A stretch of DNA of 29,224 nucleotides from a virus (taxonomy: Duplodnaviria; Caudoviricetes), in the IMG/VR virus record IMGVR_UViG_3300037876_000121, positions 1 to 29,224 of that record. One strand, 5' to 3'. Shown here one piece after another: positions 71 to 15,970 of the stretch. The notes under the pieces are model-generated. The model was not told the origin of the DNA. It saw only the letters and a list, made by a program, of their open reading frames with translations, and ran no database searches. The position numbers were made by a program, and so were the translations under genes. Numbering within the stretch: the first letter of the stretch is position 1; every line of letters begins with the position of its first letter.

Positions 71-1246
71 ATGTCAGATATATTTGAATCAAAATGGGGC
101 GAAACTAAAGCCGCTCTTACAGAAGGTTTAGCAGGCAACAAAAAGAAGACTATGGACGTTATCTTAGAAAACACAAAAAGATATTTGTCAGAGCAGTCTA
201 CAGCAGGTGCTACTAGCGCCGGTAACGTTGCTACGTTAAACAGAGTGATCCTACCAGTAATCAGAAGGGTAATGCCTACTGTTATTGCGAACGAGATCGT
301 TGGTGTACAACCAATGACTGGTCCAGTTGGTCAGATCCACACACTAAGAATAAGATATGCAGACACAGTTGCGTCAAACACGACTGCAGGTGAAGAAGCA
401 TTATCTCCATTCAAAATTGCGAAAGCATACTCTGGTAACCAGAACAACTCTACTCCAAAAGCGGCATCAACAGCCTCTTTAGAGGGAACACCTGGTAAGA
501 GATTATCAATCCAGATCTTGAAACAACCGGTTGAAGCGAAGTCTAGAAAATTAAGTGCTAGATGGACGTTTGAAGCGGCTCAAGATGCACAGGCACAACA
601 AGGTATCGATGTTGAAGCGGAAATCATGGCGGCGTTAGCTCAAGAGATTACTGCTGAGATCGACCAAGAAGTAATTGGTTCATTAAGAACATTAGCCGGT
701 TCGGCTTCTGAGACTTTTGACCAAGCGGCTGTGTCAGGTACTGCAACATTCGTTGGTGATGAACACGCGGCATTGGCTGTTCTTATCAACAGAGTTGCTA
801 ACCAAATCGCTACAAGAACAAGAAGGGGTGCTGGAAACTACGCTGTAGTTTCTCCAACTGCTCTTACAGTTCTTCAATCAGCATCAACTTCAGCGTTCGC
901 AAGAACAACTGAAGGTACTTTCGAAGCACCTACTAACACTAAATTTGTTGGTACATTAAACGGCGCTATGAGAGTTTACGTTGACGCTTACGCTTCAGAC
1001 GGTACAGACGTACTAGTAGGTTACAAAGGAGCAAGTGAGGCAGACGCACCAGCGTTCTATTGTCCTTACATTCCTTTAATGTCTTCTGGTGTTGTACTAG
1101 ATCCGGCTACATTCGAACCAGTTGTTGGTTTCCTAACAAGATACGGTTACGTTGAATTAACGAACACTGCATCTTCACTAGGTAACGCGGCAGACTACGT
1201 AGGATTAGTAGGAATGAACAGCGGAACAAACTTAAAATTCAAATAA
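71..1246 (+). CDS. gp23: Major capsid protein, T4 gp23-like (391 aa)
   Basis: gp23-family motifs: LPVIRRVMPTVIANEIVGVQPMTGPVGQIHTLR, VEAKSRKLSARWTFEAAQD, AEIDQE, IATRTRRGAGNY, FYCPYIPL, DPATFEPVVGFLTRYG. Purine-rich RBS (AAAGGAAG) upstream. Confidence 0.97.
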   Translation: MSDIFESKWGETKAALTEGLAGNKKKTMDVILENTKRYLSEQSTAGATSAGNVATLNRVILPVIRRVMPTVIANEIVGVQPMTGPVGQIHTLRIRYADTVASNTTAGEEALSPFKIAKAYSGNQNNSTPKAASTASLEGTPGKRLSIQILKQPVEAKSRKLSARWTFEAAQDAQAQQGIDVEAEIMAALAQEITAEIDQEVIGSLRTLAGSASETFDQAAVSGTATFVGDEHAALAVLINRVANQIATRTRRGAGNYAVVSPTALTVLQSASTSAFARTTEGTFEAPTNTKFVGTLNGAMRVYVDAYASDGTDVLVGYKGASEADAPAFYCPYIPLMSSGVVLDPATFEPVVGFLTRYGYVELTNTASSLGNAADYVGLVGMNSGTNLKFK

Positions 1247-2084: not shown

Positions 2085-2090
2085 TAAATA
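2085..2090 (+). promoter_or_regulatory. Late promoter core TAAATA
   Basis: ATAATAAATA immediately before the structured leader at 2095. Confidence 0.7.
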
Positions 2091-2094
2091 CACA

Positions 2095-2185
2095 TAGTTC
2101 AAACGTGCTTTTGCACAAAGCAAAAGACTTATGCGGATAACCACCGCGTACCTAGGAGAACTAGGATTGGACTCCTTTAAAGGAG
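2095..2185 (+). ncRNA. Candidate structured cis-regulatory 5' leader RNA
   Basis: P1 TAGTTC 2095-2100/GAACTA 2158-2163 encloses P2 CTTTTGC 2108-2114/GCAAAAG 2120-2126 and P3 TATGCGG 2130-2136/CCGCGTA 2144-2150. The palindrome CTCCTTTAAAGGAG 2172-2185 covers the SD. Confidence 0.6.
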
Positions 2186-2193
2186 AAAACAAA

Positions 2194-2628
2194 ATGGGAA
2201 GACCAGTAAAAAAAAGTAGATTTGGTAGTACAGCAGGTGACTTCGAAGTCACAGGTGCGTTCTCTACAGAATCAATACAACCAGACGGATCTGGTGCAGA
2301 GGCAGTATCAACTGTTTCAGGAAACTACATCGAAGCTCAGAGATCAAGTACGAGATTCAAAGTTAATTTCCTATCAGCGGATGGATCAACAAGATTATCA
2401 CAAATCTTAGATCTAAAACCGGTAGCAACAGGTTCACTTACAGCAGGCCAGTTCTGTATACAGATCATCTTAGATGACTCTACAGTGGCTTACGCGGCTA
2501 AGATCTTCAACAGAACAGTACACTACAAAACAGCAGGTGGTGTGACCGGTTCAGTGAAGTACTCATTGAGCTCAGAGGGTGCTGACGAAGCCAAAGTCAC
2601 AGGCGTTGGTTCTATCGACACTATCTAA
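2194..2628 (+). CDS. Putative virion structural/decoration protein (144 aa, MGRPVKKSRFG...)
   Basis: SD AAGGAG 8 nt before ATG 2194, preferred over the track start at 2131. Codon style resembles the capsid gene; followed by a hairpin. Function inferred from context. Confidence 0.75.
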   Translation: MGRPVKKSRFGSTAGDFEVTGAFSTESIQPDGSGAEAVSTVSGNYIEAQRSSTRFKVNFLSADGSTRLSQILDLKPVATGSLTAGQFCIQIILDDSTVAYAAKIFNRTVHYKTAGGVTGSVKYSLSSEGADEAKVTGVGSIDTI

Positions 2629-2646: not shown

Positions 2647-2673
2647 ATGGGGGAGTTACACGCTCCCCCATTT
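2647..2673 (+). terminator. GC-rich hairpin, probable terminator
   Basis: ATGGGGGAG-ttacacg-CTCCCCCAT followed by a short T run. Confidence 0.7.
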
Positions 2674-13159: not shown

Positions 13160-13200
13160 AAACGTCCCAATGGTAAATACTACTGTTGGGGCGTTTTTTT
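13160..13200 (+). terminator. Rho-independent terminator containing a TAAATA promoter core at its apex
   Basis: AAACGTCCCAA-tggTAAATActactg-TTGGGGCGTTT-TTTT; TAAATA at 13174-13179. Confidence 0.8.
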
Positions 13201-13247
13201 ACGGCTTGACTTTATATCAACATAACAATCATGAGGGATAATGAACC

Positions 13248-15881: not shown

Positions 15882-15970
15882 TAAATACTAGCACTGCTGT
15901 CAGTCGGCAATGATAAAGAGACTGTGTATGGCATATGCTGTACTAACATTATTATAAGGAGTACCCTAGT
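15882..15970 (+). promoter_or_regulatory. Late promoter core, ~80-nt leader with irregular hairpin, and SD
   Basis: TAAATA 15882-15887. Pairings TAGCA/TGCTG, TGCTGT/ATGGCA and CAGTC/GACTG across 15889-15940. AAGGAG before ATG 15971. Confidence 0.6.

Follow-up and report, generated by a model that had tools for sequence, protein, structure and literature searches.

The folded leader that heads a probable virion gene in this phage DNA is a new member of freshwater-2 (RF02980, Cis-reg), a motif that Rfam already lists. Comparison with the leaders of relatives showed that its conserved core is P3 plus P4, two adjacent hairpins, and that a closing helix and a hairpin masking the Shine-Dalgarno sequence (SD) are add-ons of the window's lineage, the window being the whole 29,224-nucleotide stretch that was analysed. 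We favour, at about an even chance, the reading that the leader is a protein-bound translational operator on that gene. This copy by itself is an ordinary member of freshwater-2. The analysis links the motif to genes of Rak2/PA5oct-like aquatic jumbo phages that are late and likely encode virion proteins, reduces it to a core of about 45 nt and allows candidate partners to be named. The features of the region are collected in Table 1.

Table 1. Features of the leader and its surroundings in the window
Feature	Position	Strand	Remarks
Major capsid protein gene, gp23 type	71..1246	+	PF07068, E 4e-99
TAAATA late-type promoter motif	2085..2090	+	Putative transcription start near 2096
Closing helix, 5' arm (pairs with 2167-2173; four-way junction)	2096..2102	+	Lineage-specific, outside the Rfam model; probabilities 0.10-0.57
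P2 hairpin, first Rfam stem	2108..2126	+	Variable; shortened or absent in relatives; minimal leaders are without P2
Freshwater-2 (RF02980) full-length match	2109..2196	+	Rfam, 78.6 bits; single copy in the contig
Invariant U and P3 hairpin (7 bp, conserved U-G pair), conserved core	2129..2150	+	
P4 hairpin, conserved core; 7-nt loop N(U/G)AGAAC at 2155-2161	2151..2165	+	
Closing helix, 3' arm; last 2 nt common to the anti-SD	2167..2173	+	
Anti-SD hairpin; Shine-Dalgarno AGGAG at 2181-2185	2172..2185	+	Pair probabilities 0.5-0.97
144-aa MGRP-family gene, likely virion protein	2194..2628	+	Family profile matches PA5oct gp383
GC-rich hairpin after the gene, weak U tract	2647..2671	+	Read from the sequence; possibly a terminator or 3' stabiliser

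Identification of the leader as freshwater-2

The Rfam scan of the whole window matched freshwater-2 over model positions 1-84 of 84, with an E value of 1.1e-10 and a score of 78.6 bits against a gathering cut-off of 49.9 bits. This was the sole match above its gathering cut-off, and a looser scan of the window gave only six further matches, all weak and below their own cut-offs. The leader has the three hairpins, the conserved UUAUG/CGUA stem base and the AGAAC loop of freshwater-2, and it lies directly upstream of the SD and of the AUG at 2194. An earlier note on this DNA could assign the leader to no known Rfam family, presented it as the best candidate for an undescribed element and proposed an Rfam scan as a check; that scan found freshwater-2, so the leader is not novel.

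The motif reportedly comes from a survey of 224 motifs. The word 'freshwater' is absent from the main text of that survey (PMC5737381). Literature searches on 'freshwater-2' (one unrelated fish paper) and on 'RF02980' (none) returned no paper on function.

This copy resembles the Rfam model over its full length, including the three hairpins, the SD and the AUG. By contrast, the model begins only at 2109 and covers neither the 5' closing helix nor the anti-SD hairpin, nor any pairing between P3 loop and start codon (loop-start pairing). Minimal members with two hairpins fall below the RF02980 cut-off or are missed; when 20 chosen variant loci were compared with RF02980, 8 were over the cut-off, 7 were under it and 5 were not reported. 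Among close relatives, the match was above the cut-off in 20 of the 20 loci tested (27 were fetched).

Predicted fold of this copy

The region 2085-2200 was predicted to fold at -30 kcal/mol (z -4.60), and none of 200 shuffles did as well. The letters of the helices listed in the earlier note are all present, and its hairpins P2 (2108-2114/2120-2126) and P3 (2130-2136/2144-2150) were borne out, with pair probabilities of about 0.98 for P2 in a transcript from 2096 (0.54-0.96 when the transcript starts at 2091 and runs to 2230) and of 0.85-1.0 for P3. The hairpin said to mask the SD is also predicted to form. The CCTAG/CTAGG hairpin forms as well (probability 0.99), but it is the covarying core stem P4 and not the competitor of other helices for which it had been taken.

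The remaining pairings of the proposed switch were not recovered. The helix P1 (2095-2100/2158-2163), which was to close a three-way junction, had a probability of 0.0 in each of the three folded spans and is 4 to 5 kcal/mol less favourable than folds that retain the CCTAG hairpin: the three-way junction with the SD hairpin reached -24.2 kcal/mol, while three hairpins with the SD hairpin reached -28.2 kcal/mol and a four-way junction with a shortened SD hairpin reached -29.1 kcal/mol. The 'ON' pairing of 2154-2158 with 2172-2176, which was to free the SD, also had a probability of 0.0, and that state reached -20.1 kcal/mol.

The favoured fold is the four-way junction closed by 2096-2102/2167-2173, with probabilities of 0.39-0.57 for the inner pairs and 0.10 for the outermost pair of this closing helix. 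In these predictions the real competitor of the anti-SD hairpin is the closing helix, with two bases common to both; the overlap is small, so that the two can also coexist. The four-way junction with the full closing helix and the SD open reached -26.9 kcal/mol. The SD-closed and SD-open folds are predicted to lie within about 2 kcal/mol of each other here, and the predicted cost of opening the ribosome-binding site (RBS) of this copy is 4.5 kcal/mol.

Conservation and covariation

Covariation among relatives had been named in the earlier note as a check, and the leader proved to be conserved and covarying in its P3-P4 core. For the window's own lineage, 45 sequences chosen by hand were aligned. 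Two-sided changes affected 4 of the 5 P4 pairs, with 98.2% of cells paired, and 6 of the 7 P2 pairs; the closing helix had 96.8% of cells paired with few two-sided changes. In the same alignment P1 was paired in 86.3% of cells and the ON pairing in 85.8%, the latter with no clear excess over shuffles; a P1 of at least 5 bp is possible in 47 of 203 leaders. The AGGAG at 2154-2158, on which the switch was to turn, is present in 28 of 203 leaders; it is part of the P4 stem-loop, which covaries. With P1 and the ON pairing both at a probability of 0.0 and P4 covarying, the mutually exclusive expression platform drawn in the note was not upheld.

A search by the first codons of the gene only, blind to the leader, gave 106 distinct upstream regions, from which the core was absent in L184, L221 and L264 only. 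When loci were pooled, with duplicates and loci with less than 125 nt upstream dropped, the core was present in 204 of 211 leaders, part of this pool having been selected by the core pattern, so that the invariance figures lean high; the other four leaders without the core belong to second, tandem MGRP paralogues (L161, L181, L186 and L210).

The order of the core is a U, then P3 (U-A, A-U, U-G, G-C, two variable pairs and G-C), then P4 with the loop N(U/G)AGAAC. The U before P3 was found in 204 of the 204 core-bearing leaders, the U-G pair in 203, and loop positions 3-7 of P4 were retained in 195-204 of them. Pair 6 of P3 was GC in 152 leaders, UA in 35 and AU in 17, with zero mismatches under a parser that demanded 6 of the 7 pairs. 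On a FastTree protein tree of 201 rows and only 114 columns, this pair had 31 changes at each of its two positions and 31 of the pair as a whole (31/31 coupled), and the P4 pairs behaved alike (26/27/28, 59/58/62 and 50/49/56). The window fell within a supported clade of 47 rows, 45 of which have its type of 3' extension.

The 5' part of the leader ranges across relatives from a few bases to a long hairpin, and the 5' segment folds by itself in 185 of 203 leaders. The distance from the end of P4 to the AUG is 12-31 nt. Despite its conservation, P4 is predicted to be unstable in most open-type leaders (probability above 0.5 in 20 of 126).

Possible masking of the initiation region

An anti-SD of at least 4 bp was found in 4 of 127 open-type leaders, 15 of 29 leaders of the second extended type and 47 of 48 window-type leaders. 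Loop-start pairing of at least 4 pairs was possible in 100, 24 and 1 of these leaders, respectively, while 51, 16 and 4 were expected from loop shuffles. A trade-off between the two was not significant in a tree-aware test (12 independent pairs, median p 1) and was rejected.

Outside the window's lineage, one register of the loop-start pairing was possible in 136 of 213 leaders, against 2 of 50 inside it (set of 263). In this copy the loop allows 3 pairs with the start codon, where at least 4 were taken to define an H-type pseudoknot. The partner of the U of the AUG is an A or a G in 194 of the 213 leaders outside the lineage, the second loop-start pair is mismatched in 55 of these 213, and one compensating change was seen with the Met-Ala gene at locus L362; covariation of this pairing is nearly untestable because the target codons are fixed. 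We offer a loop-start pseudoknot in most relatives as a suggestion. The anti-SD cannot covary since the SD is fixed, and 0 of its 5 pairs had a two-sided change. Folding without pseudoknots predicted the SD to be mostly unpaired in 103 of 126 open-type leaders, and masking of the initiation region by some route is possible in most leaders.

A pseudoknot between the 5' end and the P4 loop was also rejected, inspection of the few loop variants by eye having revealed no compensating change, as was translation from the AUG at 2131 inside P3, which is in frame here, whereas only 5 of 202 leaders have it in frame with no intervening stop.

Late-type promoter and putative transcription start

The leader had been placed right behind TAAATA, and a late-type promoter followed by a conserved leader was supported. 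According to a passage of PMC5259590, ATAAATA is the predicted late promoter of phage CBB and precedes structural genes. All 20 TAAATA sites of the window were intergenic in our own gene list (94% coding), and their count was not above that of shuffles (20 vs 17.6). The remark that neighbouring genes have almost no leader was largely right, as 12 of the 20 sites lie 5-13 nt before an ATG. Several lie only 5-6 nt before one, and these shortest gaps suggest that transcription starts about 6 nt past the motif, here near 2096.

Contigs of related strains from marine and freshwater RNA runs cover the leader and the gene; they give no start, strand or level, and two extend upstream of TAAATA, so that they are not evidence for the transcription start. 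Six supplementary files of PMC10690425, a part of the set, were searched and gave no hit. Many late genes likely use leaderless messages, given the 12 short gaps, which may hint at the host type. Two further late-type leaders, of 68 and 83 nt, lie at 13174-13247 and 15882-15970 of the window, with predicted hairpins of -11.3 and -15.9 kcal/mol, respectively.

The downstream gene and its family

The gene had been called a putative virion gene, which is supported as likely by its family: the MGRP family profile matched PA5oct gp383 (E 1.3e-11 at Z=1e6), a protein detected in virions by ESI-MS/MS with 11 peptides and 50.92% coverage (PMC7318152, supplement row). Starting from a divergent family member, homologues were found in Phosso, Atu_ph07 and the PA5oct group, and these were confirmed with the family profile. 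The mean column identity of the family is 22%, and the proteins are about 25% identical.

PA5oct gp383, Phosso gene 429 and Atu_ph07 AUZ95257 share with the 144-aa protein a homologous N-terminal domain and an MGRP start, have TAAATA upstream (about 30-35 nt before the AUG) and keep the basic N-terminus. They differ in being longer (234-326 aa) and in having short leaders with no RNA core. Rfam searches around the Phosso genes found nothing, and a blastn search of low sensitivity for a cultured carrier of the RNA, with two leader types against 50,697 phage records, returned only short chance pieces.

The 144-aa protein had no Pfam, PHROG, PDB sequence or ESM Atlas match. Its structure model is confident (pLDDT 90.5) and resembles proteins of uncultured phages and of Atu_ph07; its likeness to 'possible surface proteins' of fHe-Yen9 phages is weaker. 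Foldseek gave no PDB match at E 0.001, and the best VIA match, to SH3/KOW-like barrels (rmsd 2.1, 46 residues aligned), had a Z of 4.4, below significance, with none at a Z of at least 5. These blank annotation searches do not show a new fold. From the resemblances of the model and the position of the gene next to the capsid gene, we infer a capsid-surface role.

Distribution of the core

Scans with the core-only pattern gave lists drawn from an estimated ~4000 viral and ~1100 cellular matches. Among the viral matches listed, an MGR start follows in 113 of 122 loci and a similar start in 4, of which 2 match the family profile; the remaining 5 look like chance. Among the cellular matches listed (120 of ~1100), none had pairing, promoter and gene together, and all look like chance. 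Of 143 untruncated matches, 142 precede an MGR start. The leader structure thus adjoins the initiation region and is tied to one gene, the placement of an operator; the metabolite-linked genes expected downstream of a riboswitch were not found, nearly all being of the MGRP family, which has a virion member. Of 131 core-bearing loci with sufficient flanking sequence, 101 have the capsid gene at most 1.4 kb upstream.

Some loci depart from the common arrangement. At L076:1155-1242 (-), the ORF behind a full freshwater-2 leader (72.2 bits) encodes 239 aa and is unrelated; the leader lies directly after a terminator-like hairpin and has its own short anti-SD hairpin. L283 and L284, 1.7 kb apart on one contig, are two MGRP-type paralogues, each with TAAATA and a freshwater-2 core. 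At L142:62-115 (+), a glutamine riboswitch match (RF01739, 49 bits, cut-off 35) lies behind TAAATA and before a short ORF, 150 nt upstream of the freshwater-2 copy.

A proposed translational operator

In the operator that we favour, the freshwater-2 RNA would likely be the entire 5' leader of a late phage message. A conserved late protein, either the unassembled MGRP protein or the capsid protein to which it would attach, may bind P3-P4 and so keep the initiation region closed whenever there is a surplus of subunits. In the window's lineage the closed state would consist of the anti-SD hairpin, and in most relatives of the pseudoknot between P3 loop and start codon; the variable 5' hairpin would serve mainly to protect the message end. 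Both the identity of the partner and the sense of the control are inferred.

The P4 loop and some paired positions keep invariant letters while neighbouring pairs covary freely, which suggests that a partner recognises the core and that stability is not the whole reason, and a P4 that is conserved yet predicted unstable is as expected if a partner or a tertiary contact stabilises it. The invariant letters, the fixed site by the RBS and the link to one gene family fit a protein-bound operator best, and the gene context favours a protein over a metabolite as the partner. The MGRP protein is divergent (22%) whereas the RNA core is nearly invariant, so that binding by the product itself fits poorly; a better conserved partner, for instance the capsid protein, may be involved. 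Against the operator stand the L076 leader before an unrelated ORF, the mostly unpaired SD of open-type leaders and the failure of the trade-off in the tree-aware test. The cultured homologues without the core indicate that in some lineages the gene does without the leader.

An operator of this kind has parallels in T4, where gp32 and gp43 repress their own translation via leader structures, as described in part of PMC3014915. The likeness lies in a structured phage leader by the RBS and in feedback by a phage protein, which here is proposed; the pseudoknot that the same part describes for gene 32 resembles the one proposed for freshwater-2 relatives. There, gp32 and gp43 are nucleic-acid-binding replication proteins with proven binding, whereas here the product is a likely virion protein with no recognised RNA-binding fold and binding is proposed; the two T4 operators also have no sequence relation to the freshwater-2 leader. 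In T4 gene e, a hairpin likewise masks the RBS of a late gene, but its late promoter lies within the structure, so that late messages are without the 5' arm (PMC3014915, in part); here the whole structure is downstream of TAAATA and would be in the late message.

Feedback control of a virion protein by its leader RNA would usefully extend phage biology. A more elaborate version is unlikely as a whole: that freshwater-2 is a translational switch found only in phages, pseudoknotted in most lineages and rebuilt here with a four-way junction and an anti-SD hairpin, which sets the dose of a virion surface protein in response to a metabolite or to unassembled parts of the capsid. If true, freshwater-2 would be a class of regulatory RNA that serves only jumbo-phage morphogenesis, and perhaps a riboswitch that arose in phages.

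Alternative explanations

It is unlikely that the structure only stabilises the message and fixes the translation rate of an abundant virion protein, with no regulated partner. Such a passive leader would leave the invariant U, the U-A, A-U, U-G and G-C pairs and the AGAAC loop unexplained across ~25%-identical proteins. It agrees with the neighbouring 77-aa gene, also headed by a 5'-terminal hairpin with conserved pairing and free sequence (25 of 26 relatives), with the independent folding of the 5' segment in 185 of 203 leaders and with homologues that work without the leader (the cultured homologues; 7 of 211 leaders).

We consider quite improbable a metabolite or ion riboswitch, in which P3-P4, with the start-codon pseudoknot in most relatives, would bind a ligand and gate translation. 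The compact invariant core adjoining the RBS, the H-type geometry of 136 of the 213 leaders from other lineages and the match at L142, on the evidence of which these phages do carry aptamers, speak for it. However, the downstream gene is a likely virion gene and not a metabolic one, no genuine copy was seen in the 120 cellular loci listed of ~1100, no riboswitch family matched the window in the Rfam scan, and the specific switch of the earlier note was supported by neither folding nor conservation.

There is little likelihood, too, of activation in trans, in which the leader would be shut by default until a phage small RNA or host translation factor that recognises the invariant core opens it. 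An invariant RNA before a divergent protein fits a conserved outside partner, and the RBS is predicted closed in the window's lineage, but most open-type leaders have a predicted accessible SD. A self-cleaving or packaged RNA, an upstream start codon or a DNA-level signal is very improbable despite the small invariant core and the conserved AUG within P3 (AUG 2131, in frame with the gene here), since that AUG is so rarely in frame without a stop (5 of 202 leaders), the conserved U-G pair (203/204) works only on the + strand as single-stranded nucleic acid, and no ribozyme family matched the window in the Rfam scan.

Genomic context of the window

The window, a 29-kb virus fragment, is estimated to cover 8% of the genome and carries genes for a gp23-type capsid, tail sheath, tail tube and neck. 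Its capsid protein shares 72.8% identity with that of Sinorhizobium phage Phosso and 69.4% with that of PA5oct, which places the source phage near Rak2-like jumbo phages. At 1399-1682 lies the 77-aa hydrophobic ORF, with no Pfam or PHROG match and its own TAAATA (1399); its 5'-terminal hairpin (1410-1423), of which the pairing and not the sequence is kept, is followed by a long SD, and the ORF often separates the capsid gene from the MGRP gene (38 loci). Upstream of the leader, a 98-aa ORF (1774-2070) with no family match is rare among relatives (2 upstream regions) and is probably a recent insertion.
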